DNA from: Patescibacteria group bacterium
GTDB lineage: Bacteria > Patescibacteriota > Minisyncoccia > Phycocordibacterales > UBA6065
DNA length: 38,094 bases
Assembly: GCA_038064295.1 (NCBI GenBank)
Contig: JBBTTH010000021.1
Coordinates: forward strand, 1 to 38,094
Direction: 5' to 3'
Shown here: positions 801-31,033 of the stretch, in pieces
How the letters are laid out: every line of letters begins with the position of its first letter
Position numbering within the stretch: the stretch's first letter is position 1
Translations under genes and position numbers: made by a program
Notes under the pieces: generated by a model
Told to the model about the DNA's origin: nothing
Database searches by the model: none
The model's input: the letters and a program-made list of their open reading frames with translations, nothing else

Positions 801-831
801 AAGATTTCGGAAAAGTGGTAAAATTATACCA

Positions 832-2624: not shown

Positions 2625-2626
2625 AA

Positions 2627-3097: not shown

Positions 3098-3107
3098 AAA
3101 ATTCAAT

Positions 3108-3659: not shown

Positions 3660-3691
3660 TACGTGTGAAGATAATGTGATAAAAAGATTCC

Positions 3692-5422: not shown

Positions 5423-5460
5423 TCGCTCCGATAAATATATTCACATGTTATAATCTCGAT

Positions 5461-7399: not shown

Positions 7400-7766
7400 T
7401 TTTCTCCGCGTTTCCGGCGAAATCCTCTCTGGCTCCGGCCACGTTTGAATCGGGGTATACCCAGATGTGAGCGTGAGGCACTTCTTCGCCTATAATTTTT
7501 GATAGGACAAAATCGGTATTAAAAGCTTTCTTTTGTGCCAAGGCGATTTTTTGGGCGACTTCAAAATATTTTCCTATATTTAAGCTCGTCTGTCTGCCGG
7601 CTGGCAGGTCCCAGACCCATCTGTAATGCTTTTTCGGGATGATTAAAGTATGCCCAGAGGATTCCGGATCTATGGAGAGAAACGCTAAAAAATTTTGGTC
7701 TTCATATACTCTATGCGACGGAATTTCTCCACGAATTATTTTGCAAAAAACGCAATCCATATTCAT
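7383..7766 (-). CDS. HIT (histidine triad) family nucleotide hydrolase.
   Basis: N-terminus MNMDCVFCKIIRGEIP and histidine triad motif PHAHIWVYP. The track ORF extends to a GTG at 7784. Confidence 0.85.
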   Translation of the reverse strand: MNMDCVFCKIIRGEIPSHRVYEDQNFLAFLSIDPESSGHTLIIPKKHYRWVWDLPAGRQTSLNIGKYFEVAQKIALAQKKAFNTDFVLSKIIGEEVPHAHIWVYPDSNVAGAREDFAGNAEKIRKNL

Positions 7767-7820
7767 ATGATAAAAATACCACACCTCGGGGAGATGTGGT
7801 AGAAGGCTTCTATTGTGGCA

Positions 7821-8414
7821 TCATTCCGGAATGCCGAGAAAATCAAGACATGTTGCCATGAGTATTTCAGGGTCACAGATAGTCTCCAGTTTCGTCTCGG
7901 TCAGTTTGTTGAAATCGGTGCACGAATGGATACGATGACCAAACACTGGATTATGAAAGACCTCAGAGACCTCGATTTTGAATTCTACAAATCTGACTGG
8001 ACTTTCGATTTTTCCAAAATATCGTTTTCCAAAATATCGTGTGAGAGTAATCCCGCTGCTCTGGTCTCGTTGGCAGAAGAGCGGAAAGCCCAGAATATTG
8101 TCATCTGACAAGCCGTCATTGTAATAAAATCCCAGACTATTATCCATCGTTCTCGCGTTGATGAAGACGTAAAAATCCTTATTCTGGTTGAGGACTTTTC
8201 TTAACGTCCCCGTGGCTCTGTCGAGAATTTGGGCAATCAATTTTTCATGGGATTGCCGATGTATCTCGGCGATTTTTGCCATCAGTTTTTCGTTTTCTTC
8301 GGCGGCTTTCTTTCTCATCCTGGCGCCTTCGATGGCTTGTTCAAATAGAGTTGGCGTTCGGGAAGTCGTTTTCATGATAGAGTATTTGATATATGCTGTG
8401 ATTCGTGCGAGCAA
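7821..8414 (-). CDS. Hypothetical protein. An alternative ATG start lies at 8375.
   Basis: It is the longest ORF in the region. I recognised no motif. It contains an in-frame duplicated pentapeptide RYFGKRYFGK. Confidence 0.5.
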   Translation of the reverse strand: MLARITAYIKYSIMKTTSRTPTLFEQAIEGARMRKKAAEENEKLMAKIAEIHRQSHEKLIAQILDRATGTLRKVLNQNKDFYVFINARTMDNSLGFYYNDGLSDDNILGFPLFCQRDQSSGITLTRYFGKRYFGKIESPVRFVEFKIEVSEVFHNPVFGHRIHSCTDFNKLTETKLETICDPEILMATCLDFLGIPE

Positions 8415-10242: not shown

Positions 10243-10758
10243 ATGCCGATACGAATTTTCACGGACGGAGCTTCGCGCGGAAACCCGGGACCTGGGGGAT
10301 GGGGAGCGATTATTTCCACAGAGAAAAAAGTCATAGAACTCGGTGGCAGAAAAGACCGTGCGACGAACAACAGAATGGAACTGTCGGCGGCCATAAACGC
10401 CCTAGAACATGTCCGCGAGGAAAATTTCGCCAATCTCGGCGATTTGGCCGCCGACGATAAAAAAGTCCAGCTTTTTTCGGATTCAAAATATGTCATTATG
10501 GGAATTACGGAGTGGATTTTTGGCTGGCAGAGAAAAGGTTGGAAAACAGCCGACAGAAAAACAGTTTTAAACAGAGATTTGTGGGAGAGACTGGCGAATG
10601 CGGCAAAAGGTCTGAAGATAGAATGGAAATACGTAGCGGGACATACAGGACACAGCGGAAACGAAAGGTGTGATGAAATCGCCACGCTCTATGCGGACGG
10701 AGAAAATGTACATTTATATTCTGGAGCCAGAGAAAAATACCCCATAAAACTGTTCTAG
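10243..10758 (+). CDS. rnhA: Ribonuclease HI.
   Basis: Motifs IFTDGASRGNPGPGGWGAI, TNNRMELSAAINALE, SDSKYV and GHSGNERCDEIA. Confidence 0.9.
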   Translation: MPIRIFTDGASRGNPGPGGWGAIISTEKKVIELGGRKDRATNNRMELSAAINALEHVREENFANLGDLAADDKKVQLFSDSKYVIMGITEWIFGWQRKGWKTADRKTVLNRDLWERLANAAKGLKIEWKYVAGHTGHSGNERCDEIATLYADGENVHLYSGAREKYPIKLF

Positions 10759-10821
10759 CGGGTCATGCCAGAAGAAGAGAGTTGGTGACAAAAAAATAAA
10801 AAAGTGGAATGTGCCGGGCGA

Positions 10822-10869
10822 GAACAGTCCTCGGGTCGGATTTGTCAAGGACAGACCGTTGACAAATCC
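10822..10869. repeat. Copy 1 of a 48-nt conserved core containing a 10-bp hairpin. Copy 2 is at 34457-34504.
   Basis: The sequence gaacagtcctcgggtcggatttgtcaaggacagaccgttgacaaatcc matches 34457-34504 at 46 of 48 positions. The hairpin is ggatttgtca/tgacaaatcc, and both differences fall in its loop. Confidence 0.7.
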
Positions 10870-10896
10870 TTAAAAGATCTGCGATATCACGCCATT

Positions 10897-10932
10897 TTCT
10901 TTATTTTTTCTTTAGATTTTCTTTATCTCCGT
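10897..10932 (+). promoter_or_regulatory. 36-nt T-rich phased motif (ttctttat-N5-ctttag-N5-ctttatctccgt) ending 16 nt before the comEC ATG.
   Basis: It matches 13045-13080 at 34 of 36 positions, and that copy ends 16 nt before the ATG of the MBL-domain gene. The internal period is about 11 nt. Confidence 0.55.
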
Positions 10933-10948
10933 TGTGTAAGGTTGGGGG

Positions 10949-12400
10949 ATGAACAACAAAACATTCTATGGCCTGTTTCTTTCCTTTTTTGCGGGAGTTT
11001 TTACCGCCTCTTTTGCGCATATCGACGCTATTTTCGCTCTCGTCGGTCTTTTAATCGGTGCCTGCCTCCTCATCAGAGGGTTTAGATTTATTTTTTATTT
11101 TGCCTGTCTCATTTTCTTTTTTCTCGGGGCGTATAGACTGGAAATTTCAAAAAATTATATCCATCCACTGGATGATTACATCGGAAAAATCGTGTCTGTG
11201 AGAGGTTTTGTGAGCGCGGAGCCGGAAATGAAAGAAATAGCGCGCAGATTCCGTTTTAAACCGGACGGTTCCAAAGACCAGATAATCATTTCCGCCGCTC
11301 TATATCCGGAATATAAATATGGCGAAGCTCTGGAAATCAAAGGTATCCTGAAATTTCCTGAAAACTTTGAAAGTCATCCAGGCGGTCCAGAATTTGATTA
11401 TATCTCATATCTCTCAAAAGATGATGTGCGTTATGTCATAAATCGTTCATCCATAACAAAACTCGGAGAAAATCATGGAAACCTCGTAATTTCATTTCTC
11501 ATAAAAATAAAGAAAGCATTTATAGAAAACATAGAACGTTTCCAGCCGGAACCTCATTCGTCCCTGGTTGCCGGCATTCTCCTCGGAGAAAAGAGTTCAT
11601 TGTCAAAAGATTTGCAAGATAATTTTAGACGTTCCGGCCTGACTCATATTCTGGTCTTGTCGGGTTTTAATGTTTCCATCGTAGCTGTGAGCCTCATGAA
11701 TATATTTTCATTTCTGCCGCGCGCTATGGGCCAATCCCTCGGTGCTTTTTCCATAATTTTGTTTGCCTTGATGACGGGCGCGTCCGCTACAACCATACGC
11801 GCCAGCATCATGGCTCTGATTGTCATCATGTCCTCGCGGGCGGGGAGAAGTTACGACGTATCACGGGCTCTCATTATTGCCGGCCTACTCATGCTGGTCC
11901 AAAATCCGCGCATTTTGGTTTTTGACATAGGCTTCCAGTTGAGTTTTCTATCCACTTTGGCCTTGGTATATGTGTCGCCGATTTTTACAGAAAAATTATT
12001 ATTTATCACAGAAAAATTTCAAATACGGCAGATATTCTCGACGACCATATCAACTCAGGTATTTATTCTGCCTTTTTTGCTATACAAAATGGGCGAAATA
12101 TCTGTCGTATCACTCATCACAAACCTGCTCGTCTTGCCTGTCATTCCGTGGTCCATGTTTGGCGGCTTTATGACAGGTTTTTTCGGTTTTTTCGGTAGTT
12201 ACATTGCTTTACCCTTTGCTTGGGTGACGAATGTTTTACTGTCCTGGATGATATTTGTCGTTTCTTTTTTTGGAAAATTACCTTTTGCTTCCATAAAAAT
12301 GATTATCACTCTTCCCATGCTTTTTTTGGCATACATTTTTTTGACATTTTGGATCGTGCGGTTTCACAAGAAAAAGAGATTGGCAGAAAGCAAGGTTTAG
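10949..12400 (+). CDS. comEC: ComEC/Rec2 DNA internalisation channel: N-terminal OB-like region plus polytopic competence domain, with no MBL domain.
   Basis: The protein is multi-TM, with motifs LLGEKSSLSKDLQDNFRRSGLTHILVLSGFNVSIV and GASATTIRASIMA typical of the ComEC competence domain. Confidence 0.85.
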   Translation: MNNKTFYGLFLSFFAGVFTASFAHIDAIFALVGLLIGACLLIRGFRFIFYFACLIFFFLGAYRLEISKNYIHPLDDYIGKIVSVRGFVSAEPEMKEIARRFRFKPDGSKDQIIISAALYPEYKYGEALEIKGILKFPENFESHPGGPEFDYISYLSKDDVRYVINRSSITKLGENHGNLVISFLIKIKKAFIENIERFQPEPHSSLVAGILLGEKSSLSKDLQDNFRRSGLTHILVLSGFNVSIVAVSLMNIFSFLPRAMGQSLGAFSIILFALMTGASATTIRASIMALIVIMSSRAGRSYDVSRALIIAGLLMLVQNPRILVFDIGFQLSFLSTLALVYVSPIFTEKLLFITEKFQIRQIFSTTISTQVFILPFLLYKMGEISVVSLITNLLVLPVIPWSMFGGFMTGFFGFFGSYIALPFAWVTNVLLSWMIFVVSFFGKLPFASIKMIITLPMLFLAYIFLTFWIVRFHKKKRLAESKV

Positions 12401-15224: not shown

Positions 15225-15298
15225 TGGTGGACCTAGCGAGAATCGGACTCGCGCCTCTACAATGCGAATGTAGCGTCGTGCCACTGGACTATAGGCCC
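15225..15298 (-). tRNA. tRNA-Ala, anticodon CGC, with genomically encoded CCA.
   Basis: The reverse complement is GGGCCTA-TA-GTCCAGTGGCACGAC-G-CTACA-TTCGCAT-TGTAG-AGGC-GCGAG-TCCGATT-CTCGC-TAGGTCC-ACCA. It folds as a cloverleaf with the G3-U70 alanine identity pair. Confidence 0.9.
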
Positions 15299-16511: not shown

Positions 16512-16928
16512 ATGCCCACCATTCATCAATTGGTGAAGCGGAAGCGACGTTCTCTCAAGAGAAAGTCAAAATCAGTCGCTCTGACCAAGAGTTTTAACGT
16601 CCTCCAAAACAAGCCGCGATATTTCTATTCGCCATTCAAGCGCGGCGTCTGCATCAAAGTGACGACAAAAACTCCAAAGAAGCCAAACTCGGCCATCAGA
16701 AAAATAGCCCGTGTCCGTCTGTCAAACGGCATGGAAGTTACCGCTTATATTCCAGGCATCGGTCATGCTCTGCAAGAGCACTCTGTGGGTTTACTGCGTG
16801 GTGGTCGCGTCAAAGACGTAGGGCTCCGTTACACGGTTGTGCGCGGAGTATTGGACGCCGGCGGGGTAGAGAAGCGAGCAAAAGGTCGCAGTCAATATGG
16901 CACAAAGAAGCCAAAAGCGGCGAAATAA
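16512..16928 (+). CDS. rpsL: 30S ribosomal protein S12.
   Basis: [10 protein letters not shown]... and [17 protein letters not shown] match the S12 pattern. Confidence 0.97.
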
Positions 16929-16973
16929 ACCGACACAATAATTTTCCGTAATGATCCGTAACAAAAAACTACA

Positions 16974-17444
16974 ATGCGTAGAAAAGTAAACATAAAGCAC
17001 GACCTCGTTCTAGACCAAAAATATCAGTCAGTCAAAATTTCAAAACTGATGAATTACATCATGTACGACGGCAAGAAAAACCTGGCCAGAACAAATGTAT
17101 ATAAATGCTTTGACATCATAAAAGAAAAAACCAAAACGGAAAATCCGTTGGATGTTTTTGAAGCGGCCCTGAAAAACACAGCGCCGAATGTAGAAGTGCG
17201 CTCTAGGCGTGTCGGAGGCGCAAACTATCAGATTCCCGTGGAGGTCAGACCGGAGCGGCGTCAGGCTCTCTCCATAAAATGGATCATAGACGCCGCCAGA
17301 AACAAGAAGGGCGCACCGATTTCAGCAAAACTGGCCGATGAAATAATCGCTGCCTCCAAAAACGAGGGCGATGCCGTAAAGAAAAAGGAAAACACCCATA
17401 AAATGGCCGAAGCCAACAAAGCTTTTGCCCACTTTGCATGGTAA
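16974..17444 (+). CDS. rpsG: 30S ribosomal protein S7.
   Basis: VEVRSRRVGGANYQIPVEVRPERR matches the S7 pattern. Confidence 0.97.
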   Translation: MRRKVNIKHDLVLDQKYQSVKISKLMNYIMYDGKKNLARTNVYKCFDIIKEKTKTENPLDVFEAALKNTAPNVEVRSRRVGGANYQIPVEVRPERRQALSIKWIIDAARNKKGAPISAKLADEIIAASKNEGDAVKKKENTHKMAEANKAFAHFAW

Positions 17445-17479
17445 TTGGGATTATAATCAGAGCTTATAAAATTTAAACT

Positions 17480-19624
17480 ATGAACCGCGACTACCCGTTG
17501 GACAAAGTCAGAAACTTCGGAGTTATTGCTCATATTGATGCCGGTAAGACAACCACATCGGAGCGCATTTTGTATTACACGGGTATGATTCACAAAATCG
17601 GCGAAGTACACGAAGGTGAAACCACTACAGATTGGATGGAACAAGAGCGCGAGCGAGGTATTACCATCACCGCAGCGGCCATCACCTGTTTCTGGAATCC
17701 GACTTATATGCCGGCCGGCGATACTTCAAAAAAATGCCGTTTCAACGTCATAGATACGCCCGGGCATATAGATTTTACGGTGGAAGTAAAGCGTTCTCTG
17801 CGCGTCCTGGACGGCGCCGTCGTAGTATTTGACGGTGTGGCCGGCGTGGAGCCACAATCGGAAACAAACTGGCGCTATGCCGACGAATCAAACGTACCTC
17901 GCATCTGTTTCATAAACAAACTTGACCGTATGGGCGCCTCTTTTGAGAAATCCTACAAATCAATTCTTGAACGTCTGAACAAACGCGCCGTGCGCATTCA
18001 AATCCCCATGGGGGCGGAAGAAAATCTCCGAGGCGTCATAGACCTGGTCCGTATGAAAGCGTACATATTTGAAGGAGAAAAAGGCGAGAAAGTCATAGAG
18101 AGTGAAATTCCCGCCGAGTATGCCGAAGAGGCGAAAAAATATCGCGCCGAAATGATTGAAAAAATCGCCGAGACTGACGATTCGCTCATGACGGCGTATC
18201 TGGAGGGCAAAGTATTTGAAATGGACACGATAAAGAAAGGCCTGCGCAAAGCCACTCTGGCCTGCAAGATGTTTCCCGTCATAACCGGCTCGGCTCTGAA
18301 AAACAAAGGCGTTCAGCTAGTTCTAGACGCAGTCGTGGATTATTTACCTTCACCTCTCGATATTCCGCCGGTAAAAGGTCACCATCCGGAAACGGGTGAG
18401 GAGGTTATCCGCCATGCCGATGACAGCGAGCCTTTTTCCGCTCTGGCATTCAAATTGCAGAATGACCCTTTCGTCGGCCAGCTCACATTTTTCCGCGTCT
18501 ATTCGGGAACGGTGGAAGCCGGCTCGTACATATATAATGCCACGACAGGCAAGCGCGAGCGCCTCTCCCGCATCGTCCGTCTCCAGGCGGACAAACGCGA
18601 AGAAGTAACCAAAGTTTTTTCCGGCGAGATCGCGGCGGCCGTGGGACTGAGAGACGCTCTCACTTCTCATACTCTCTGCGACGAAAACAACCCGATTATT
18701 TTGGAAGTCATAAAATTCATGGACCCCGTGGTGTCTTTGCGTATAGAGCCGGCCACAAAGGCCGACCAGGAGAAGATGGGTACGGCCCTGCGCAAACTGG
18801 CGAACGAAGACCCGACATTCCGCATCACCTCAAATGCCGAGACGGGCGAGACTTTGATTGCCGGCATGGGAGAACTCCACTTGGAAATCATGGTTGACCG
18901 CATGAAGCGCGAATTCGGTGTCAACACGAATGTCGGCAAGCCTCAGGTGGCGTATCGCGAGACTATCATAGGCACGGCCGAGGCGGAACAGAAATACATA
19001 AAGCAGTCCGGAGGCAAAGGCCAGTATGGGCATGTCAAAATCACGTTGAAGCCTCTGCCGGCTCTGGTGGAAGGAGAAAAGATTCCGAAAAACACAAAAC
19101 GCTATGATGATTTTGAATTTATAAACTCCATTAAAGGCGGGGTCATTCCAAACGAATTCATTCCGGCGGTTGAAAAAGGCGTGCGCGAAGCCATGGACCG
19201 CGGTATCGTAGCCGGTTATAAAATGGTAAATATTTCCTGTGAACTTACATACGGTTCGTATCACGACGTGGACTCCAGCGAAATCGCTTACAAAATTGCT
19301 GCTTCCCAAGCTTTCCAAGACGGCGCAAAACGAGCCCGACCGGTCATCCTGGAACCCATCATGAAAATAGAAGTTGTCTCTCCGGAGAAATTCATGGGTG
19401 ATATCATCGGATCTCTCTCCGCAAAACGCGGACAAATAGAGAGTACAAATCCAAAAGGCCAAGTTCTCTCTATCATTGCCAAAGTGCCTCTGGCGGAAAT
19501 GTTCGGCTACACCACAGCTCTCCGTTCTATGACTAGCGGCCAAGGCAGTTCACAGATGGAATTTGATCACTATGAAGTAGTGCCGCCGCAAGTGGAAAAG
19601 GCGATTGTTGAGTCTAGGAAATAA
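17480..19624 (+). CDS. fusA: Elongation factor G.
   Basis: G domain motifs AHIDAGKTT, DTPGHIDF and NKLDR are present, within a 714-aa EF-G architecture. Confidence 0.97.
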   Translation: MNRDYPLDKVRNFGVIAHIDAGKTTTSERILYYTGMIHKIGEVHEGETTTDWMEQERERGITITAAAITCFWNPTYMPAGDTSKKCRFNVIDTPGHIDFTVEVKRSLRVLDGAVVVFDGVAGVEPQSETNWRYADESNVPRICFINKLDRMGASFEKSYKSILERLNKRAVRIQIPMGAEENLRGVIDLVRMKAYIFEGEKGEKVIESEIPAEYAEEAKKYRAEMIEKIAETDDSLMTAYLEGKVFEMDTIKKGLRKATLACKMFPVITGSALKNKGVQLVLDAVVDYLPSPLDIPPVKGHHPETGEEVIRHADDSEPFSALAFKLQNDPFVGQLTFFRVYSGTVEAGSYIYNATTGKRERLSRIVRLQADKREEVTKVFSGEIAAAVGLRDALTSHTLCDENNPIILEVIKFMDPVVSLRIEPATKADQEKMGTALRKLANEDPTFRITSNAETGETLIAGMGELHLEIMVDRMKREFGVNTNVGKPQVAYRETIIGTAEAEQKYIKQSGGKGQYGHVKITLKPLPALVEGEKIPKNTKRYDDFEFINSIKGGVIPNEFIPAVEKGVREAMDRGIVAGYKMVNISCELTYGSYHDVDSSEIAYKIAASQAFQDGAKRARPVILEPIMKIEVVSPEKFMGDIIGSLSAKRGQIESTNPKGQVLSIIAKVPLAEMFGYTTALRSMTSGQGSSQMEFDHYEVVPPQVEKAIVESRK

Positions 19625-19647
19625 AGTAGTATAATAAAAAGGTGAAA

Positions 19648-20058
19648 ATGGGAATGAAAAATCACTCTATATTTATCCAAGTGTTGGTTGTTTTTATTCT
19701 CAGTGTTTTTGCCTTTATATCCAATGTCTTTGCCGATTGGAATCCACCGACACAATCTCCTCCGGGCGATAATGCTACTTCTCCTCTCAATATATCAAAT
19801 ATAGCCCAATCAAAAATCGGCGGGCTTTTGCTCAATACCGGCGGTGCTCAGTATGGTCTCATCGTTCAATCGGGAAAAGTCGGCATAGGTACCGCCAGTC
19901 CGCAAGCGACACTAGATGTCAGTGGCACCATAAAAATGAGTCCGACATCTTCTTCTCGCGCCGGACGAATGGCCTGCTGGACGGACCAGAATTTGCTCGG
20001 CTATTGCCTACTGGGAGCGGCAAATGGAACATATTGTTTTAATTGTGTTACGCAGTAG
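19648..20058 (+). CDS. Small secreted protein with a Cys-rich C-terminus. Function unknown.
   Basis: A signal peptide ends in ..NVFA|DW. Motifs include PPTQSPPGDNATSPLN and GKVGIGTASPQATLDVSG, and the C-terminus reads C-x10-C-x10-C-x2-C. An RBS aaaaggtga lies upstream. The track ORF starts at GTG 19642. Confidence 0.6.
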   Translation: MGMKNHSIFIQVLVVFILSVFAFISNVFADWNPPTQSPPGDNATSPLNISNIAQSKIGGLLLNTGGAQYGLIVQSGKVGIGTASPQATLDVSGTIKMSPTSSSRAGRMACWTDQNLLGYCLLGAANGTYCFNCVTQ

Positions 20059-20113
20059 TTACCATACCCGCGACACTTGACGGATTCATAGGAGTATGCT
20101 AGTATAACAAAGT

Positions 20114-20137
20114 AGAGCCTGAAATAAGGCTCTTTTT
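20114..20137 (+). terminator. Intrinsic terminator after the small secreted-protein gene.
   Basis: agagcct-gaaata-aggctct is followed by tttt. Confidence 0.6.
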
Positions 20138-20213
20138 GCTCTTTGAAAAATTGTGTGAAAAAACCGGGCATTTCGTCTGGGTTTTGAGCCGTTTTCTTTG
20201 GGCTGAATTTGTC

Positions 20214-20447
20214 ATGAAAAAACTCCGCCAAAAAATAAAGGAAATTAGTCTAATCATCATGGTCCTGGCGATTCTCGCCGGTACCATTTGGATGTTCTAT
20301 CGCAATCTCGTCGAAATCTGTAAGACCGAGGGCGAGATTAGAAATCAGTCGACCAAAACCAAGTCCGTCACGACCAACAAAGTCAATGATGGTAAGGTTG
20401 AGGTCGTCTTCCAAGGTGTCATGCCGGAAATGAAAAAGCCGGAATAA
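20214..20447 (+). CDS. 77-aa single-pass membrane protein, hypothetical.
   Basis: MKKLRQKIKE is followed by the TM segment ISLIIMVLAILAGTIWMF. Composition resembles that of the downstream GC-rich gene. Confidence 0.45.
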   Translation: MKKLRQKIKEISLIIMVLAILAGTIWMFYRNLVEICKTEGEIRNQSTKTKSVTTNKVNDGKVEVVFQGVMPEMKKPE

Positions 20448-20510
20448 CACTAATTGATCTATCAGTCAAACAACTCAAGTCAGTCAACCCAGAAAACAAA
20501 ATCAGAAACC

Positions 20511-21659
20511 ATGAAAGCGAAATTCATCAGTTCAATCGTGGCGCTCCTCGTAGCGCTTTGCTTCAGTAATGTTATGTCAGCGGCCGATGTTGCTCCGCCG
20601 TCGCCGGTGGTTCCGACACCGGTGATCGCCACTTCGGTGACAATCAGGCCGACGACGCCAATCCAGACGTCGGGTCAGGCAAACCTGCCGCCGCCCCCCA
20701 CGACACTCCCGATTGCTTCAAAAGCGAAGCTCCAGGCGTTCGCGGAAGCCTTGGTTAACCAGATCTATGTCAGCAACTGGTCAACCTCGGCGGCACCGAC
20801 AGAAACCGGTAACACGTACGCCGTTGCAAATTATACGGGTACCGATGTTGACACTGACCGCATGGCGGCCGTCGCAAGTGCACAGAAATTGACCTACCGC
20901 GTCGACCCACGGGATACAATACAGGTTGACGTAACCTATTCCTGGCTCACACCAGACAAGAGGTTCAACTTCACGTTGTTCGTTGCCAATTCGAGCTTCA
21001 AGCTCGAACAAAAGACGCCTAACAGTGAAGCCTGGACGGTACCAACGGCCGCATATAAGATGACCATAGAATCAATGAATTGGGTACCGGTGTCAGTACC
21101 GGGTATCCAAGATGCCTACTGGGAATCCAAGGACGGTAACGGCAACATCACTGGCTATTATAGTTTTAGCCAGGCGGGTCGGATCAACTCGGACAGTGGG
21201 TTCTTGATCCTTGGCAATGATGTCGTCGCAAGGACGGGTTCGTTGTACATCACCCGTACCGATGGGTCAAAGCTGGTCTATGGTATGGCCGACGGGGTTC
21301 TGCAACCCACGACATCGGTCACGGCGACCGGATTCACTCCGCAGATGAAGGGTACACGATCACTGCTGGATGATACGACCAATGTGGTATATCAACCCGG
21401 AGATCAGTTGCTGCAGATCAGATTCACGAAGAATATGGTCGGAACCATAACCTTCCCAACGGTTGCTAACGGAGAAATGCCGACCGCGGCAAGTTACGTC
21501 GATGGCGCGACATTATGGTCAAACCTCGAAGCGCCGTGGACCATGATTCGCCTCACGGTGCCGATGTTCGAAGCAAAGGCCGGTCAGCTGATAATCATTC
21601 GTTTTGATTATCGGAATACCAACCCGATGCCGAACAATGGGGGCGGTGGCAAAGGTTAA
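20511..21659 (+). CDS. 382-aa secreted protein with a Pro/Thr-rich linker, hypothetical. It is a compositional outlier.
   Basis: The signal peptide is MKAKFISSIVALLVALCFSNVMSA, followed by the linker APPSPVVPTPV...PPPPTT. I recognised no domain. It is visibly GC-richer than its flanks (one counted 60-nt stretch had 42 G+C). Confidence 0.7.
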   Translation: MKAKFISSIVALLVALCFSNVMSAADVAPPSPVVPTPVIATSVTIRPTTPIQTSGQANLPPPPTTLPIASKAKLQAFAEALVNQIYVSNWSTSAAPTETGNTYAVANYTGTDVDTDRMAAVASAQKLTYRVDPRDTIQVDVTYSWLTPDKRFNFTLFVANSSFKLEQKTPNSEAWTVPTAAYKMTIESMNWVPVSVPGIQDAYWESKDGNGNITGYYSFSQAGRINSDSGFLILGNDVVARTGSLYITRTDGSKLVYGMADGVLQPTTSVTATGFTPQMKGTRSLLDDTTNVVYQPGDQLLQIRFTKNMVGTITFPTVANGEMPTAASYVDGATLWSNLEAPWTMIRLTVPMFEAKAGQLIIIRFDYRNTNPMPNNGGGGKG

Positions 21660-21696
21660 TCGGCTCACAAAACGTTCTTTTTAAGTCAGTTCAAAA

Positions 21697-21724
21697 GCTG
21701 TTCTCACGGGAGGACGGCTTTTTT
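21697..21724 (+). terminator. Intrinsic terminator.
   Basis: A 9-bp stem gctgttctc/gaggacggc (two G-U pairs) with loop acgg is followed by tttttt. Confidence 0.65.
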
Positions 21725-21798
21725 CTTGTCTAAACGACATCAAGATTTTCAAGGTAAAACCTCGATATACTCCAATATTGTATATCCACATATCAATA

Positions 21799-21827
21799 TT
21801 TGACCATATTTTGTCTACATGCTAGAC
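21799..21827 (+). promoter_or_regulatory. Putative sigma70-type promoter TTGACC-17-TAGACT, only 7 nt upstream of the ATPase ATG (leaderless-type arrangement).
   Basis: Hexamers and spacing were read directly from the sequence. The atgctag context resembles the promoter-like site at 20077-20105. Confidence 0.4.
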
Positions 21828-21834
21828 TATAAAT

Positions 21835-22977
21835 ATGTATATAGAACGATTTCCAAAAATTGAAGATAAAATAGAGGCTGGAAAAGTTCTCGTTATTTAT
21901 GGCGCGCGACAAGTCGGCAAGTCTTCTCTTGTGAAAAATTATATTGAAAAACTTAAACTGAATAGATCGAATGAAAAACAGGCTTTTTTTAATGGTGAGG
22001 ATGTGAATGTGCAGGCGATTTTCTCCTCAATGAATTTAAAAACTTTAAATGAAGCGGTGGGAGATGTTTCACTTGTTATAATAGACGAGGCGCAGGTCGT
22101 TAGAAATATTGGTATTTCGCTCAAATTGCTCGTGGATACGAAACCCGAGCTAAAAATAATAGTGACAGGCTCATCTTCTTTTGAGCTTTCCGGACAGATA
22201 GGGGAGCCCCTGGTCGGCAGGATGAATATCATTAATCTTTTTCCTCTATGGGAAAAGGAAGTTAAAGATGCCAGTCTCTATGATTATATAACAGACCTTG
22301 ATTTTGCCCTGCGGTTTGGTCGATACCCGGCGGTTTTCAAAGAGCCTGTCGTAGAAAAGAAAAAAGAAATTGTCACCAATATCGTAAACGGTTATTTACT
22401 CAGAGATATTTTGGCTTTTGACAGGCTGAAAAATTCAAAATTGATTCTGGATATACTCAAACTCTTGGCATATCAGATAGGCAATGAAGTTTCTATACAC
22501 GAAATAGCGACCAAACTTTCCATAAATAGAGCGTCTGTTAGTAAATATTTGGATTTATTGGAACAGAACTTCATTATTTTTCCTCTCCGTGCATGGAGCA
22601 AAAACATGAGAAATGAAATCCGCAAAAAAGAAAAATATTATTTTTATGATCTCGGCATCCGAAATTCTCTGATAGAAAATTTTGACGCTTTGGATGTTCG
22701 TAACGACATCGGTGCATTGTGGGAAAACTTTTTGATTACAGAGAGGTTGAAATATAACAAGTATACAGACCCCTATAAATCGGTCTATTTTTGGCGCAAA
22801 TTGTCAGGCGCCGAGGTAGACTTTGTGGAAGTATACGCTGACCATATTGATGGCTATGAATTCTCTTTTACGGAGAAAAAAGGTAATAAATCAAGGTTTT
22901 CTTGGGTAGAGAGCTATAAAAATGCCACATGGATGAATATTCACAGAGAGAATTATAGAGATTTCGTAGGTGGATAA
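21835..22977 (+). CDS. AAA+ superfamily ATPase of the AAA_14 + DUF4143 type (COG1373-like).
   Basis: It has Walker A YGARQVGKSSL and Walker B LVIIDEAQ. The C-terminal region matches the architecture typical of this orphan ATPase family. The gene is AT-rich. Confidence 0.8.
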   Translation: MYIERFPKIEDKIEAGKVLVIYGARQVGKSSLVKNYIEKLKLNRSNEKQAFFNGEDVNVQAIFSSMNLKTLNEAVGDVSLVIIDEAQVVRNIGISLKLLVDTKPELKIIVTGSSSFELSGQIGEPLVGRMNIINLFPLWEKEVKDASLYDYITDLDFALRFGRYPAVFKEPVVEKKKEIVTNIVNGYLLRDILAFDRLKNSKLILDILKLLAYQIGNEVSIHEIATKLSINRASVSKYLDLLEQNFIIFPLRAWSKNMRNEIRKKEKYYFYDLGIRNSLIENFDALDVRNDIGALWENFLITERLKYNKYTDPYKSVYFWRKLSGAEVDFVEVYADHIDGYEFSFTEKKGNKSRFSWVESYKNATWMNIHRENYRDFVGG

Positions 22978-23021
22978 TGCCGAAATACACTTGTGGATAA
23001 CTTTCCTTGCGCTATGCGACT

Positions 23022-23030
23022 GGGGGGGGG
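23022..23030 (+). repeat. G9 homopolymer tract upstream of the large surface-protein gene.
   Basis: Nine consecutive G lie between the TTGCGC (23007-23012) and TACACT (23031-23036) hexamers. Confidence 0.9.
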
Positions 23031-23153
23031 TACACTTCATGGGTGAGTTTCGGTCCTCGAAATCTCGCCCAAACCGCTCGACTGTTTTGGGCGCGTTTTG
23101 TTGAAGGGGTTATTAAAAGAAAAATTATAAAAATAGGTATTGTTCCTAAAAAT

Positions 23154-25502
23154 ATGTCAAAGAAAATCGCAATTTCTGTCGTCTCGGTAGCGTTCCTCAT
23201 TAGCTTGTTTGGATTCGGCGCAGTCCGTTACGCGTCCGCTCAAAATCTGACCTTCACTCAAATCATAGATATTCTCATTGCCATAGGTGTCATTCCCGCC
23301 GACAAAATAGCGGCCGCCAGGGCGGCAGTGGCTGGTATTTCTGTCACTCCGTCTGCCACATCTGCCGCGACTACAACTACTCCATATACAACCGGCGTGC
23401 AATGCTCATCATCGGATTTCAGTACTGCTTTCAATGCGGCGGCCGTCAGGTTTGATATCGGAACTAACCCGGGCGGTAATTTCCAGCTTGTCACAGCCGG
23501 CAACGGTCGGACCGGGTCGGGCTATAAAGAATGCAAAATCTGGGTAGACTATTCCGTGCCCGCATTACAGCTCGGGAATGGCATATTCGTTGGCCCCGGG
23601 ACCAAAGAAGGCAACACTCTGGGTTTCGGCTCACGGGTAGTAGCTACCCCCTCGCAGACGGCACAGACGGTAACAAATACAAATAATCTGATTAAAGTTC
23701 TTTCACCAAACGGAGGGGAGACGTATAAAGTTGGCGACAGACTTTCTGTCAGTTGGACTCCTGGTGCTCCAGGTGTTCGTCAGATATCTCTTAACAGAGC
23801 GGACGGATATTCAAACAATATCATGGCTGTCGAAACAGCTAATACTTCAGGCATATTTTCTTTAACCATACCTTTAAATTTCCCTGCCGGACAGTATAAG
23901 GCTGTAATGTATTATTCTGATGCTGGACAAAATGAAGCTGACAGAAGTGATAATTATTTCACCATCACCGCTCCGCAGACGATAGTTCAACCTTCGGTCA
24001 CTATAACTGCACCTATAAGTGGACAAACATTAACACAAGGTCAGCAATACACGATCAGGTGGTCAAACGCCAATTTGCCATCAAACGCCGAACTTATTAT
24101 CATTGCTTTCAACGGTCCGACAGCCGATGGTATATATCCAAACAGAGTGATTGTTGGTAACTTGTCACCTAATACAACTTCGTATACATGGATTGTACAA
24201 TCTAATGATGGTACATGGCAAACGGGCCTCGGTGTAGGACCATTCACTCAAAAACTTGCACGTTTTTTAGGTATTGATATTGCGCATGCCTCGAGTAATC
24301 AATATACGATTGGTATTATTGCATCCAACAGCGATGTTGGACAATTAACGAAGGGTTCAAGCGGTGTTTTCGCTATCACCGCTCCGCTGACACAAACGAT
24401 CAGTGTAACCGCTCCTTTGGCCGGACAAGAATATAAGACTGGTAGTTATATACCGGTCAGTTTTACGTGGCCGGTCTATGGAAATACATATACTATCCAA
24501 TTGAGAGGAAAGGGCTATTCTTATGATCTGGGCACTGTCTATATAAATACAGCCACGGATCAGAGCAAAAACTCCTTCGTTCTACCGTCGTCGGTTCCAT
24601 CTTATGTTGGGTCGTTCAATGTGGTTATAATGTCTGGCAGAAACGACATAGCATATTCCCCAAGCTTCGCCATCACCGCTCCGCAGACGACAGTTGACAA
24701 CAACAAACCCGTAGGCTACCTGGATAACGTCAGCTGTAGCCTGTTTGCCGGCTGGGCCTATGACCCTGACGACACTTCCGCCCAGATAGGAGTCCATTTC
24801 TATGCCGGCGGCAGGGCGGGTGAAGGGGGCGTATTTATCGGCAGTGCAGTAGCAAACGTCTCCCGTCCCGACGTCAATTCAACCACGGGCGTGACAGGCA
24901 ACCACGGTTTCAGTTTCACCGTTCCACCATCATTGCATGACGGCGCCACTCACGCTATTTACGCCTACGGCATAAACAGCACCGGTTCCACCAATTTGAA
25001 CAATTCACTTCTGACACAGAGTCCGCTTTCCATGGGTGGATGTGCTACTCCAGCGGCAGTAGCTCCTGCCGCCACAGGCCCCATCATTAATTCATTTTCC
25101 GTTTCACCTCCATCCGTGACCAGGGGAGAGAACGTAACATGGAGCGGAACCGCGACGACACAGTCCGGGTATTGCATTACAAAACACAGAGCGATTGTCG
25201 TCGGTTCTCAAACGCCTTCTTGGAGGCTTGCTGACGAGCGTTGGACGGACTTGGGTTGCGTGCAATCGGTTCCGCTATCAGCTACTGTTAACACGGCTGT
25301 CAATCCTTATTCTTTCTACGAAGGCAAAACTTCATACGAAGTAATATGGCAGATAAAGGATTCAGCTGACAAAACCGCGTCAATGACTCAAACCGTCACG
25401 GTCAACCCCGCTCCGACAAGCATGAACACCGTCCAATCCAATCTCGGTAACGTATCCATATCATTTGAAGAGATTATGAGATTGATTAACGCTCTGAGGT
25501 AG
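23154..25502 (+). CDS. 782-aa secreted or cell-surface protein with tandem Ig-like modules.
   Basis: The signal peptide is MSKKIAISVVSVAFLISLFGFGAVRYASA. Repeated modules are delimited by ITAPQT / ITAPLTQT and each contains SP.GGE.YK.G..L.VSW-type strands. The C-terminal part carries a GWAYDPDD...HGFSF module and one further Ig-like domain. Confidence 0.8.
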   Translation: MSKKIAISVVSVAFLISLFGFGAVRYASAQNLTFTQIIDILIAIGVIPADKIAAARAAVAGISVTPSATSAATTTTPYTTGVQCSSSDFSTAFNAAAVRFDIGTNPGGNFQLVTAGNGRTGSGYKECKIWVDYSVPALQLGNGIFVGPGTKEGNTLGFGSRVVATPSQTAQTVTNTNNLIKVLSPNGGETYKVGDRLSVSWTPGAPGVRQISLNRADGYSNNIMAVETANTSGIFSLTIPLNFPAGQYKAVMYYSDAGQNEADRSDNYFTITAPQTIVQPSVTITAPISGQTLTQGQQYTIRWSNANLPSNAELIIIAFNGPTADGIYPNRVIVGNLSPNTTSYTWIVQSNDGTWQTGLGVGPFTQKLARFLGIDIAHASSNQYTIGIIASNSDVGQLTKGSSGVFAITAPLTQTISVTAPLAGQEYKTGSYIPVSFTWPVYGNTYTIQLRGKGYSYDLGTVYINTATDQSKNSFVLPSSVPSYVGSFNVVIMSGRNDIAYSPSFAITAPQTTVDNNKPVGYLDNVSCSLFAGWAYDPDDTSAQIGVHFYAGGRAGEGGVFIGSAVANVSRPDVNSTTGVTGNHGFSFTVPPSLHDGATHAIYAYGINSTGSTNLNNSLLTQSPLSMGGCATPAAVAPAATGPIINSFSVSPPSVTRGENVTWSGTATTQSGYCITKHRAIVVGSQTPSWRLADERWTDLGCVQSVPLSATVNTAVNPYSFYEGKTSYEVIWQIKDSADKTASMTQTVTVNPAPTSMNTVQSNLGNVSISFEEIMRLINALR

Positions 25503-25510
25503 ACATAGCA

Positions 25511-25611
25511 AAAAAAGCGGCGGATACAAAGTTCTCGTCGCTCGGAGAGGGACCCTTGGAAAGGGCACCCCTTGCTCCTCGCGACTCGAACTTTGTATCC
25601 GCCGCTTTTTT
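25511..25611 (+). terminator. 101-nt extended hairpin flanked by A6/T6 runs (family 1, copy 1). It is terminator-like and bidirectional.
   Basis: The arm aaaaaagcggcggatacaaagttc (25511-25534) pairs perfectly with 25588-25611. Pairing continues through gtcgc/gcgac, ggag/ctcc and the apical ccctt-gga-aaggg. Confidence 0.7.
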
Positions 25612-25617
25612 ATTTTA

Positions 25618-25645
25618 TTGACTTTGTTCGGCGGTCTGCTATGAT
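25618..25645 (+). promoter_or_regulatory. Putative promoter TTGACT-16-TATGAT for tuf.
   Basis: It starts 7 nt after the hairpin T-run and lies about 60 nt upstream of the tuf ATG. Confidence 0.5.
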
Positions 25646-25707
25646 ACGCAGTACGCATTTTGCGCGCTTTTTTAGTTATTTATTCATTATTATTTATTTC
25701 TTTATTT

Positions 25708-26901
25708 ATGGCAGAATTCAATAGAACAAAGCCTCACGTAAACGTCGGTACTATCGGTCACGTTGACCACGGCAAGACCACTCTCACCGCTGCTATCCTG
25801 GCGACTCAAGCTCGAGATGGCTTGGCCAATCCAAAAGCCTATGCCGATATCGCCAAAGGAGGTACCATTCGCGACGCTTCTAAAATCGTGACGATCTCTC
25901 TCGCTCACGTTGAATATGAATCAGACACCCGTCACTATGCTCACATAGACTGTCCCGGGCATGCCGACTTCATAAAAAACATGATCACCGGCGCGGCTCA
26001 AATGGACGGCGCTATACTGGTGGTTTCCGCCATTGACGGTCCTATGCCTCAGACGCGCGAACACATTCTCCTGGCAAAACAAGTCGGTGTGCCTCGCATC
26101 GTCGTCTTCCTCAACAAATGCGACGCCGTGGACGACAAAGATTTGATTGATTTGGTAGAAGGCGAAGTGCGCGACCTCCTCACAAAATATGGTTTTGACG
26201 GGGCAAATACTCCGGTTATCCGCGGTTCCGCTCTCAAATCTCTGGAAGCCAAAGACAACAAAAACCCATGGACGACAAAGATAAAGGAATTAATAACTGT
26301 TTTGGACAGCTACATTCCTATGCCTGTGCGCGCAACAGACAAACCTTTTCTCATGCCCATAGAAGACATCTTCTCTATAGAGGGACGCGGTACGGTAGTT
26401 ACGGGTCGTATAGAACGCGGTCAAGTAAAAATCGGCGATGAAGTGGAAATCGTCGGTATAGAACCTACTTCAAAGACCGTCATTACCGGTATAGAAATGT
26501 TCAACAAACAGCTCCAATCAGGTATGGCGGGAGACAATGCTGGAGTATTGCTTCGCGGTACGGCCAAAGACGCTGTCCATCGCGGACAAGTTTTGGCAAA
26601 GCCGGGCACGACTACTCCCCATATAGAATTTGAAGCCGAGGTGCTCATCTTGAAGAAGGAGGAAGGGGGCCGACACACACCATTCTTCAATGGTTACAAA
26701 CCGCAGTTTTATGTACGCACGACCGATGTTACAGGTGAAGTAACCCTCAACCCAGGCGTTGAAATGGTCATGCCTGGAGACACCGTGGCATTCAAAGTAA
26801 AACTTCACGCTCCTATCGCTCTGGAAGAAAAACAGAGATTCGCTATCCGCGAAGGTGGCAAGACTGTCGGTGCCGGTGTTGTGACAAAGATAACGAAATA
26901 A
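25708..26901 (+). CDS. tuf: Elongation factor Tu.
   Basis: [33 protein letters not shown] and NKCD are present. The start is taken at ATG 25708. Confidence 0.97.
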
Positions 26902-26909: not shown

Positions 26910-27302
26910 ATGGCCGAAGCAACAAAAGCCGAAACAACAAAGAAGGCGGTAGTCAAAAAACCAAAAGCAATAAAGGTGCCAAAAATAGAGGCTCCTGTTC
27001 CGCGCTTGCGCATCAGGGTTCGCGCTTATGAGAATAAAGTTTTGGATGCTTCGGTCAAGCAAATCATAGATACAGCTCTCCGTTACGATGTCGTGGTCAT
27101 CGGTCCGGTTCCGCTTCCTACAGAAATCAAAAAATATACTGTAAACCGTTCGGCATTCGTCTACAAAAACGCCCGCGAACAGTTTGAAATGAGGGTGCAC
27201 AAGAGGCTGATAGACATTCTGAATCCAAATGCCAAAATCATAGAGGCTCTGACGAATATGTCATTGCCTAGCGGGGTGAATATAGATGTAAAGATGATTT
27301 AG
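26910..27302 (+). CDS. rpsJ: 30S ribosomal protein S10 with a roughly 30-aa Lys-rich N-terminal extension.
   Basis: The core is LRIRVRAYENKVLD...GPVPLPT...FEMRVHKRLIDI. Confidence 0.95.
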   Translation: MAEATKAETTKKAVVKKPKAIKVPKIEAPVPRLRIRVRAYENKVLDASVKQIIDTALRYDVVVIGPVPLPTEIKKYTVNRSAFVYKNAREQFEMRVHKRLIDILNPNAKIIEALTNMSLPSGVNIDVKMI

Positions 27303-27376: not shown

Positions 27377-27595
27377 ATGACCACTATATCTATACCCATA
27401 ACGTCGAAACAGGAAAGCTTCATCAAGTCCCTTATCAAGAGAGGAACGGTTGCCAACAAGGCTCATGCCGTACGTCGAGCCCTCGATCTCATGGCCGAGG
27501 AAGAAGTTGTTCTACGTGTGCTCAAATCTCAACAGGAGGCGAAAGAAGGAAAAATACTTCGTGGCAATTTGGATGATCTTGTAAAACTCTTCTAA
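27377..27595 (+). CDS. Type II antitoxin, probable ribbon-helix-helix (CopG/ParD-like).
   Basis: It is 72 aa. The N-terminal beta-strand TISIPITSKQ is followed by helices (..AHAVRRALDLMAEEE). Its stop is immediately followed by the toxin ATG. Confidence 0.65.
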   Translation: MTTISIPITSKQESFIKSLIKRGTVANKAHAVRRALDLMAEEEVVLRVLKSQQEAKEGKILRGNLDDLVKLF

Positions 27596-27853
27596 ATGAT
27601 TTCAATTTCTTATACACCATCTTTCCTAAAACAGGCGAAATCTCTCGAAAATGAGGTGTATCAGAATTTAAAGAAAAAAATTGAGCTGTTTAAAAATCCA
27701 CAAAATCATAAAGTTTTGAAAGTTCACAAGCTTCACGGCAGACTCGGTGACTGTTACGCGTTTTCTGTTACACATAGCACGAGAGTTATTTTTGAATACA
27801 CCGCAAAATCCGAGGTTTTATTTCATGACGTAGGTGGTCATGATATATATTGA
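27596..27853 (+). CDS. Type II toxin of the RelE/ParE superfamily.
   Basis: It is 85 aa. KLHGRLGDCYAFSVTHSTRVIFEY....VLFHDVGGHDIY fits the RelE/ParE C-terminal pattern (L.G....Y...v....R.i......v....vg.H...Y). Confidence 0.65.
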   Translation: MISISYTPSFLKQAKSLENEVYQNLKKKIELFKNPQNHKVLKVHKLHGRLGDCYAFSVTHSTRVIFEYTAKSEVLFHDVGGHDIY

Positions 27854-27980: not shown

Positions 27981-28631
27981 ATGAAATTCATTCTCGGCAC
28001 AAAGAAGAATATGACACAGATTTTTGACGCCACCGGGCGGGCATATCCGGCGACTATATTGTCGGCTGGTCCTGTGATCGTGACTCAAGTAAAAACAACA
28101 GCAACTGACGGCTATGATGCGATCCAGGTCGGTTTTGGCGAACAAAAAGAGCAGAGGCTCGGCAAGGCTGTTGTGGGACACTTGAAAGCGGCCATTGCGG
28201 CTGGCGGTTTCGGTGCTCGCGGTAACTTTCGCTACATGAGCGAATTCCGACTGTCGGCAGAAGAAGTCGCAAAATTCAAAGTCGGTGATCGTGTTGATCT
28301 CTCAACATTTAGAGAAGGCGATTCTGTCTCTGTGCGTTCATTGTCAAAAGGCAAAGGTTTTCAGGGAGCCGTAAAGAGACACCACTTTAGAGGAGGCAGT
28401 CGCACTCACGGTCAAAAACATTCCGAGCGCGAGGTTGGTTCCATCAATGGTGGCGGCCGCGTAGGCAGTGGTCGTGTGGCCAAAGGCAAGCGCATGCCGG
28501 GGAGAATGGGCGGGGATATGGTCACGGTACAAAATTTAAAGATTCTACAAATTCATCCTGAAACAAATGAATTGGTCGTGCATGGATCAATACCGGGTAA
28601 CAGAGGAGTTCTGGTTTCTATTGTTGCTTAA
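27981..28631 (+). CDS. rplC: 50S ribosomal protein L3.
   Basis: ILGTKKNMTQIFD...GKGFQGAVKRHHF.GG..THG matches the L3 pattern. Confidence 0.95.
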   Translation: MKFILGTKKNMTQIFDATGRAYPATILSAGPVIVTQVKTTATDGYDAIQVGFGEQKEQRLGKAVVGHLKAAIAAGGFGARGNFRYMSEFRLSAEEVAKFKVGDRVDLSTFREGDSVSVRSLSKGKGFQGAVKRHHFRGGSRTHGQKHSEREVGSINGGGRVGSGRVAKGKRMPGRMGGDMVTVQNLKILQIHPETNELVVHGSIPGNRGVLVSIVA

Positions 28632-30722: not shown

Positions 30723-30734
30723 CAAATCAATAGC

Positions 30735-30838
30735 AAAAAAAAGCGGCGGATATAGTTCTGCGCTACTCGGAACGGGACCCGCTCCCAGAGTCTCGCCCCC
30801 GTTCCTGCGCTGCTCGAACTATATCCGCCGCTTTTTTT
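30735..30838 (+). terminator. 104-nt extended hairpin flanked by A8/T7 runs (family 1, copy 2). It is terminator-like.
   Basis: The arm gcggcggatatagttc (30743-30758) pairs with 30816-30831. The inner helix is ggaacggg/cccgttcc. The arms are homologous to the 25511-25611 element, with compensatory changes. Confidence 0.7.
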
Positions 30839-30847
30839 GAAAAAAGT

Positions 30848-30875
30848 TTGACTTCTCCTAGACTTCTGATAAACT
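30848..30875 (+). promoter_or_regulatory. Putative promoter TTGACT-16-TAAACT followed by a roughly 150-nt structured leader before rpsS.
   Basis: It starts 10 nt after the hairpin T-run. The leader holds long-range pairing gctcgg..taggc (30888-) with gccta..ccgagc (-30989), enclosing the hairpins ctagg-gttaaa-cctag and gttgc-gcata-gcaac. Confidence 0.45.
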
Positions 30876-31033
30876 GTCAAAACCAGCTCGGAATAGGCAC
30901 TATGACTTATTTCTAGGGTTAAACCTAGATTTTTGTTTTCTGTAAGTATTTAGTTGCGCATAGCAACCATAGCCTAGACGCCCGAGCCGTAGTTTGTTTT
31001 GCAATTTACTGCAACCGCACGAATACAACATAA

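Follow-up and report, generated by a model that had tools for sequence, protein, structure and literature searches.

Does the interval that separates fusA from tuf in a contig of a groundwater Patescibacterium with a tiny genome hold one undescribed surface system, or is it a place where unrelated genes are exchanged? We analyzed a stretch of 38,094 nucleotides (nt; contig JBBTTH010000021.1 of assembly GCA_038064295.1, in full length the window) in which five co-oriented genes on the + strand lie between the fusA stop at 19624 and the tuf start at 25708. We numbered these five open reading frames (ORFs) P1 to P5 from 5′ to 3′. The gap is 6,083 nt, so the window lacks the arrangement of a classical str operon, in which tuf follows fusA by tens of nucleotides in one transcription unit. 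A preliminary description of this DNA had read the five genes as a surface/secretion cassette that forms an undescribed system. The anatomy that it reported (five non-ribosomal genes with terminators, a 101-nt hairpin and a tuf promoter) is borne out. So are the accessory, mosaic and variable nature of the interval and the predicted secretion or membrane anchoring of four of the five products; the proposal of one system was not supported. We consider it probable that the interval is a replacement-type flexible island at a recombination hot spot, which carries cell-surface variation and a defence candidate and is not one new machine. The units of the interval differ in distribution, composition, divergence and terminators, which argues against one five-gene system.

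The genomes of Patescibacteria are tiny, and an existence attached to host cells is assumed for many of them. That core genes can be interspersed with flexible islands of surface genes is a well-known principle. The relatives of the window's EF-G placed the contig in Patescibacteria, the nearest named ones being of the Paceibacteria type (Kaiserbacteria, Adlerbacteria and Nomurabacteria). Comparison loci from other genomes and metagenome contigs are designated by L-numbers. The order P3-P4-P5 was reproduced by an independent assembly (L081) and the order fusA-P1...P4-P5-tuf by three more (L084 to L086); this agreement rules out assembly chimerism as the cause of the split.

Strain-level replacement between fusA and tuf

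Homologues of P1 (75-87% identical) identified a Hainich groundwater contig, L084 (with L085 and L086), as a sister strain. Its left flank was 98.3% identical to the window at the nucleotide level across 9.9 kb, and EF-G, EF-Tu and S10 were 99.6%, 99.5% and 100% identical, respectively. The right-hand segments were 91-95% identical. The gene order in L084 is fusA, P1, a gene encoding a 309-amino-acid (aa) protein, P4, a 782-aa P5 and tuf. The segment that carries P2 and P3 in the window (20153-21765; blastn break at 20150) is replaced in L084 by 1.06 kb (10495-11555) encoding the 309-aa secreted protein, which has no similarity to P2 or P3. Junction alignments placed the left break point just past the conserved P1 terminator and the right one just past the terminator of the exchanged slot, about 70 nt 5′ of the P4 start. 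The hairpin located 3′ of the 309-aa gene has the same outer stem and tail as the one 3′ of P3 in the window (TTCAAAAGC...GCTTTTTT) and a different inner stem. Segment 20153-21765 and its L084 counterpart thus have the hallmark of a flexible island, that is, non-homologous content at the same position between conserved flanks. Exchange by homologous recombination would fit this pattern, since the flanks are conserved and the break points lie at conserved terminator hairpins.

In a second genome, L087 (EF-G 95.7% identical), fusA and P1 are followed by a protein of at least 313 aa. The slot proteins of L084 and L087 (309 and 313 aa) are homologues with 27% identity, and the window lacks them. 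The slot between P1 and P4 is therefore hyper-divergent even among homologous occupants, with P2 and P3 in the window as the derived state.

The two strains also differ within P5. Compared in blocks of 40 residues, P5 and its L084 orthologue were 85-100% identical in residues 1-160 and 77-100% identical in residues 401-782, whereas the Ig-like repeats (residues 161-400) were 10-35% identical. A blastn gap at 23633-24373 marks the same region, and direct repeats (family D1) occur at the P5 domain linkers. We considered and rejected a diversity-generating retroelement as the source of this variability: the change is replacement of a whole block over 240 residues at 10-35% identity. No reverse transcriptase was found in the Pfam-scanned ORFs or among the Pfam labels of the collinear L084 locus, and the repeat analysis of the window revealed no template-like repeat of the variable block.

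Nonsynonymous (dN) and synonymous (dS) divergence between the window and L084 was very uneven. The values of dN and dS were 0.22 and 0.37 for P5, 0.067 and 0.19 for P1, 0.003 and 0.13 for fusA, and 0.002 and 0.11 for tuf. For P4 they were 0.001 and 0.021. Its dS is five to six times below that of fusA and tuf, which suggests that the strains came to share P4 more recently than the genes around it.

Base composition agrees with a mosaic, as the preliminary description had stated (GC-rich at 20.2-21.7 kb, AT-rich at 21.7-23.0 kb). GC in 500-nt windows reached 0.55 and 0.52 between 20.5 and 21.5 kb and fell to 0.40, 0.39 and 0.36 between 21.5 and 23 kb. The 19 other genes of the window gave a background of 0.471 ± 0.031 for GC and 0.499 ± 0.046 for GC at third codon positions (GC3). 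P3 lies above it (GC 0.538 and GC3 0.627; about +2.2 and +2.8 standard deviations) and P4 below it (0.369 and 0.375; about −3.3 and −2.7), and P1 and P5 fall within the background range. The mosaic is real yet modest, because GC values between 0.36 and 0.58 also occur in windows of the rest of the 38 kb. P3 and P4 appear to have separate origins. The features of the locus are collected in Table 1.

Table 1. Features of the fusA-tuf interval and its flanks (window coordinates)
Feature	Position	Strand	Description or basis
rpsL	16512-16928	+	ORF; Pfam labels on collinear L084 locus
rpsG	16974-17444	+	ORF; Pfam labels on collinear L084 locus
fusA	17480-19624	+	ORF; EF-G 99.6% identical to L084
Left flank rpsL-rpsG-fusA (upstream part of str operon)	16512..19624	+	Conserved
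P1	19648-20058	+	136 aa; predicted secreted, signal peptide, C-terminal 4-Cys
Terminator-like hairpin and T run 3′ of P1	20114..20143 (hairpin 20114-20133)	+	Conserved in L084 and L087
Strain-specific replacement segment with P2 and P3	20153..21765	+	blastn break points, junction alignments
P2	20214-20447	+	77 aa; one hydrophobic span
P3	20511-21659	+	382 aa; signal peptide, Pro-rich stretch
Terminator-like hairpin and T run 3′ of P3	21693..21730 (hairpin 21693-21722)	+	13-bp stem
P4	21835-22977	+	380 aa; AAA_14 and DUF4143
P5	23154-25502	+	782 aa; Kre9_KNH Ig-like
P5 hypervariable block, residues 161-400	23634..24353	+	Sliding identity, blastn gap
Palindromic hairpin, 101 nt	25511-25611		A run before, T run after
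Promoter-like TTGACT-16-TATGAT with upstream TG (extended -10)	25618-25645	+	Precedes tuf
tuf	25708-26901	+	Right flank; EF-Tu 99.5% identical to L084
rpsJ	26910-27302		S10 100% identical to L084

Gene families of the interval

Signal peptides or an anchor were read from the sequences of P1, P2, P3 and P5, the last of which also has Ig-like domains. The single membrane span of the 77-aa protein and the Pro-rich linker of the 382-aa secreted protein are as first described. Scans with Pfam and NCBIfam assigned P1, P2 and P3 to no family; PADLOC assigned none either, nor did PHROGs, apart from weak matches of P1 to tail-fibre motifs.

P2, predicted to be a single-pass membrane protein, ends in a conserved extreme C-terminal motif (DGkVeVvFqGvmPeMKK). 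We defined a module as an ORF ending V.V.[YFH]...P.[MFL].K directly 5′ of a gene for a secreted P3-family protein of 330-440 aa. At all seven loci inspected (the window, L082, L089, L091, L093, L094 and L095), the P3-family gene is directly preceded by an ORF for a single-pass membrane protein of 74-100 aa with the common C-terminal motif. P2/P3 is a conserved two-gene module without a described family, and it is found elsewhere without P1, P4 and P5. We infer from the conserved adjacency that P2 may tether P3 at the cell surface or act as its partner there.

In L082, from another Paceibacterium, the rplB-rpsS junction holds the module, encoded on the opposite strand. The ribosomal proteins of L082 are about as close to those of the window as are those of L005 (EF-G 81% identical), and this is therefore the same module at another ribosomal-operon junction of a related Paceibacterium. 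The S10 operon of L082 (1-4137) is split between rplB and rpsS, and the insert also contains three ORFs of 36 aa, 231 aa and 148 aa (the last weakly SnoaL-like). In the metagenome contig L089, a second pair of the same layout (1449-2843) lies 5′ of the P2/P3-like pair and consists of an ORF for a single-pass membrane protein of roughly 100 aa and a 360-aa secreted protein, the latter without a Pfam match. Tandem duplication of the module followed by divergence may have produced this pair.

The P3 family is small. A word-index search found one homologue among 5.8 billion clusters, a profile search found 44 representatives among 1.84 billion proteins, and a metagenome search with an alignment of six P3-family sequences gave two loci. 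A signal peptide is present in every aligned homologue, and the C-terminus of many is ...GKG, as in P3 itself (...GGGKG). The AlphaFold model of P3 is confident (predicted local distance difference test (pLDDT) 87.6) and consists of a disordered linker, an alpha/beta domain and two beta-sandwich domains; the Pro-rich stretch (residues 25-66) has low pLDDT. Comparison of the model with the PDB and BFVD by Foldseek gave nothing specific (TM-score ≤0.15, generic beta-sandwich strings), and fold matches to botulinum HA70, complement C3 and phage fibres were rejected as non-specific. The P3-family profile had no match among PDB sequences. The module is thus a small uncharacterized one, with a P3 model that is confident and has no convincing fold match in the libraries searched.

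P5, which had been described as a multi-Ig-like surface protein of no known family, is Ig-like and does carry a known domain. It matched Kre9_KNH (PF10342; NCBI 'Ser-Thr-rich GPI-anchored membrane family') in two stretches with 37.7 bits, above the gathering cut-off of 24.6, and the L084 orthologue scored 24.8 bits. P5 had no match among PDB sequences. The Ig-like repeats are common to P5 and the Kre9/KNH proteins, and database homologues match P5 in these repeats only. Many of the homologues carry PG_binding_1, which P5 lacks. The signal peptide of P5 is followed by a short helical motif, and its C-terminus forms a conserved helix (...EEIMRLINALR); only the L084 and L001 proteins share these features with it. 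In L001 (EF-G 84% identical), the sole protein of the fusA-tuf gap is a 437-aa secreted Kre9_KNH protein that has both the helical motif and the helix at the extreme C-terminus (...RL[IV]NALR) in common with P5. This protein is probably a positional homologue of P5.

P4 is not the orphan AAA+ ATPase that it was first taken for: it belongs to a known phage-defence candidate family. Pfam identified AAA_14 (2e-26) and DUF4143 (8e-36) as well as a helix-turn-helix, and the Walker A (GARQVGKS) and Walker B (LVIIDEAQ) motifs are intact. P4 is a full-length match to PADLOC PDC-S01 (PDLC04789; E 1e-126, residues 7-378 versus 8-373 of the 375 profile positions) and is 99.7% identical to the L084 protein. 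The match to PDC-S01 is end to end and covers both Pfam domains. Among PDB sequences there was one marginal match (4r1h, E 0.007). PDC-S01 is a widespread single-gene phage-defence candidate with an ATPase and a PD-(D/E)XK-superfamily domain, with validation pending (PMC12988326), and DUF4143 is listed in a survey of PD-(D/E)XK proteins (PMC3424549).

P1 starts 23 nt past the fusA stop and has an AAGGTG ribosome-binding site. There is no terminator-like site in the spacer, and P1 is for these reasons probably on the same transcript as fusA. Its signal peptide ends VFA|DW, four Cys lie within the last 30 residues, and an alternative GTG start at 19642 would give 138 aa. Homologues occupy the same post-fusA position in L084 (87% identity) and L087 (79%), three genomes with the window. 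The family is small and has a conserved fibre-like motif (PP..N..PLN / GGLLLNTGGA..GLIV..G.VGIGT); the matches to PHROG tail-fibre motifs are weak (E about 3e-4). The AlphaFold model, built on 14 homologues, is poor (pLDDT 52.7). A distant relative of P1 lies in a different gene context near a large Ig-like protein.

The junction across the lineage and competing readings

Using tblastn, we mapped rpsL, rpsG, fusA, tuf, rpsJ and rplC in loci that represent 80 species and extend as far as 10 kb to either side of fusA; the lineage subset was defined as genomes with EF-G at least 65% identical to that of the window. The fusA-tuf gap exceeded 300 nt in 16 of the 17 lineage species with tuf in range (median 1.7 kb; more than 1 kb in 10); the junction was tight in the remaining one. 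Eight further lineage species had no tuf within 1.4-10 kb downstream of fusA. By comparison, tuf-rpsJ was always tight in the lineage (median 91 nt; more than 300 nt in 0/17), rpsG-fusA was interrupted in 13/24 genomes and rpsJ-rplC in 5/16. Gaps of 44-80 nt were found in loci from outside Patescibacteria (L053, L056, L061, L067, L071 and L077; Moorella, Nitrospira, Desulfitobacterium and others). The expectation that rpsL-rpsG-fusA-tuf is contiguous is correct for these loci and fails for the lineage. The split between fusA and tuf is the norm for the lineage and not a peculiarity of this genome.

None of P1-P5 matched the 80 loci of other species by tblastn at E≤1e-5, and gap contents were unrelated between species, with few similarities among gap proteins; the interval is indeed variable in relatives. 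In L005 the contents differ again; by about 80% EF-G identity the turnover is complete. Many gap proteins of the lineage have an N-terminal hydrophobic signal or anchor. When ten were scanned by Pfam, eight matched extracellular-type or repeat domains (PG_binding_1, Big_7, TIG, cupredoxin, Kre9_KNH, DKNYY and a weak CC-domain).

If the interval is a flexible island, fusA-tuf would be a hot spot at which secreted and surface genes are exchanged by homologous recombination, with an extremely conserved gene on either side. Four units could be distinguished. P1 would be attached to the end of the rpsL-rpsG-fusA transcript. The slot between two terminators would hold different secreted-protein genes in each strain, here P2/P3, with the small membrane protein P2 possibly tethering secreted P3 to the cell surface or joining it there. 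P4 would be an ATPase-nuclease-type candidate defence gene of separate AT-rich origin, and P5 a large Ig-like surface protein that differs between strains by a swap of its central repeats. Finally, tuf would restart from its own promoter behind the long palindromic terminator. The pay-off is likely surface variation: exposed structures could change for host attachment, phage escape or both, along with carriage of a defence candidate.

Several observations count against this reading. Both strains keep P1, P4 and the two ends of P5, and part of the island is therefore stable at this depth. The case for frequent exchange draws on one near-identical strain (L084) and one genome at 95.7% EF-G identity (L087). 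Secretion was read from N-terminal sequences, and the physical partnership of P2 and P3 from conserved adjacency. The neighbours of P4 are no known defence genes, and PDC-S01 itself is a candidate pending validation (PMC12988326). Terminator-like sites in the region are not above chance in number (17 versus 14.3 ± 3.9); unlike their number, the placement of the hairpins is suggestive.

Three other explanations were weighed. It is unlikely that the genes, P1 and P5 especially, are lineage-native envelope components that are kept with translation operons for co-regulation with growth and vary through fast evolution of exposed proteins. The native composition of P1 and P5, the post-fusA place of P1 in three genomes and the L001 gap protein, which resembles P5 and shares its C-terminus, speak for it. 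However, the divergence of P5 is block-wise (10-35% against 77-100%), which points to replacement and not to gradual drift, the slot shows substitution of one gene by a module that is not its homologue, and by about 80% EF-G identity no content is left in common.

An integrated mobile element (an integrative island or a phage remnant) that constitutes the interval or lies within it is improbable, and we rejected it for want of an integrase, an att site or an adjacent tRNA. Among P1-P5, Pfam, PHROGs and NCBIfam revealed no integrase, transposase, recombinase or phage structural gene, and there was none in the ten ORFs at 12-8414 (Pfam) or among the Pfam labels of the collinear L084 flank. We found no flanking direct repeats, and the nearest tRNA, the only one found, is at 15225-15298, 4.3 kb upstream. 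P3 was unmatched in 50,697 phage records, and the break points of the swap lie in homologous flanks and not at att-like sites. These results outweigh the foreign composition of P3 and P4, the low dS of P4 between strains, which is consistent with recent spread, the weak tail-fibre matches of P1 and the palindromes of about 100 nt that change position between strains.

A single coherent, undescribed surface/secretion system of all five genes, which would serve host interaction and sit beside the str operon for high expression, is very unlikely. In its favour, the genes between fusA and tuf all point the same way, four of them encode products with an export or anchor signal, P1, P4 and P5 stand together in L084 and the distant P1 relative also neighbours a large Ig-like protein. 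Against it, the five do not co-occur outside close relatives, P2 and P3 are missing from a strain with 98% identical flanks and occur elsewhere alone, terminator-like hairpins lie between units of three compositions and very different dS, and P4 belongs to a ubiquitous stand-alone family (PMC12988326).

A replacement-type flexible island, our preferred reading, has known parallels. With islands of this class (also called metagenomic islands), such as the cell-wall-associated island of Haloquadratum walsbyi (PMC4535781), the interval has in common a fixed position between core genes, content that differs between near-identical strains, the lack of an integrase and an exchange consistent with recombination in homologous flanks, and its products are likewise predicted to be secreted or surface proteins. 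It differs in that it is only about 6 kb long, lies inside rpsL-rpsG-fusA-tuf, has no glycosyltransferase or S-layer genes and includes a defence candidate. The VARTIG modules of Thermococcales contain a large multi-Ig protein whose Ig block is replaced between relatives, apparently by recombination, next to variable neighbours (PMC8416519). They belong to another domain of life and to other families, and in VARTIG the C-terminal Ig part and downstream genes vary, whereas here the central repeats vary, the slot is upstream and no toxin-like genes were seen in the interval. In Proteobacteria, Brandis et al. (2019) described accessory genes inserted into the otherwise collinear rpoBC-str-S10-spc region; those insertions separate operons, whereas the present one interrupts, between fusA and tuf, what that paper treats as a single str operon (rpsL-rpsG-fusA-tufA; PMC6735719). 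In a limited set of literature we found no report of a split between fusA and tuf in Patescibacteria. New here are the break inside the str operon, near-universal in this Patescibacteria lineage, and the P2/P3 module without a described family.

Surface determinants that vary between strains can be sought at this locus, which is easy to find because assembly and binning are reliable for the two universal marker genes on its sides. Conversely, pipelines that assume a contiguous block of ribosomal-protein genes will meet real, variable insertions in this lineage. A broader proposition, which we regard as speculative and rather doubtful, is that ribosomal super-operon junctions of Paceibacteria (rpsG|fusA, fusA|tuf, rpsJ|rplC and rplB|rpsS) are dedicated landing pads for the exchange of hypervariable surface, defence and toxin-antitoxin genes, with P5 and P2/P3 as recognition determinants. 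If so, the ultra-conserved flanks would let even diverged strains recombine, and inserted genes would profit from read-through from the strongest promoters of the cell. The Ig block of P5 and P2/P3 could then act in host attachment, as a phage-receptor decoy or in self/non-self discrimination (compare VARTIG).

Palindromes and neighbouring genes

The 101-nt hairpin between P5 and tuf has 37-nt arms that are 89% complementary, and its predicted RNA fold has −66 kcal/mol (z = −11.5). It is probably a bidirectional terminator that closes the island. A scan of 19.5-28.1 kb against Rfam at E≤1 gave no match to a known RNA element or leader. Palindromes of about 100 nt belong to at least two families, and their intergenic positions differ between the window and L084. 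The family at the P5-tuf site of the window (25511-25611) occurs in L084 after rpsJ (17147-17247), a place where the window has no copy. The family at the P5-tuf site of L084 (15329-15425) occurs in the window between pilC and a pilin gene (2078-2174). These palindromes look like mobile terminator-type elements.

More distant Patescibacteria have a conserved protein of roughly 90-140 aa directly 5′ of tuf, with mutually similar sequences (L033 13929-14297, L036 12087-12419, L043 12130-12438, L045 3897-4319, L065 12750-13124, L070 13414-13707 and L075 5729-6010). Its N-terminus (similar to MSKQLKQVINL.KKTGDRIIVFD) looks like that of Phd/YefM antitoxins.

Between rpsJ and rplC (27377-27853), the window and the sister strain both have a toxin-antitoxin-like pair, composed of a 72-aa ParD/RHH-like antitoxin and an 85-aa YafQ/RelE-like toxin with weak Pfam matches (E 0.004 and 3e-4, respectively). 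The toxin gene is strongly AT-rich (GC 0.345). The adjacent rplC (27981-28631) is 89% identical to that of L084 with a dS of 0.66, as against about 0.1 for fusA and tuf and 100% identity for rpsJ; this divergence marks a patch of local recombination within a gene for a ribosomal protein. Between rplB and rpsS (30723-31033) there is an unusually long non-coding gap of 311 nt with stops in all three forward frames; this junction, empty in the window, is the one filled with accessory genes in L082. At the other end of the window (12-3097) lie type IV pilus genes, encoding a T2SSE ATPase that is truncated at the contig end, a T2SSF platform protein and two further proteins with an N-terminal methylation motif.

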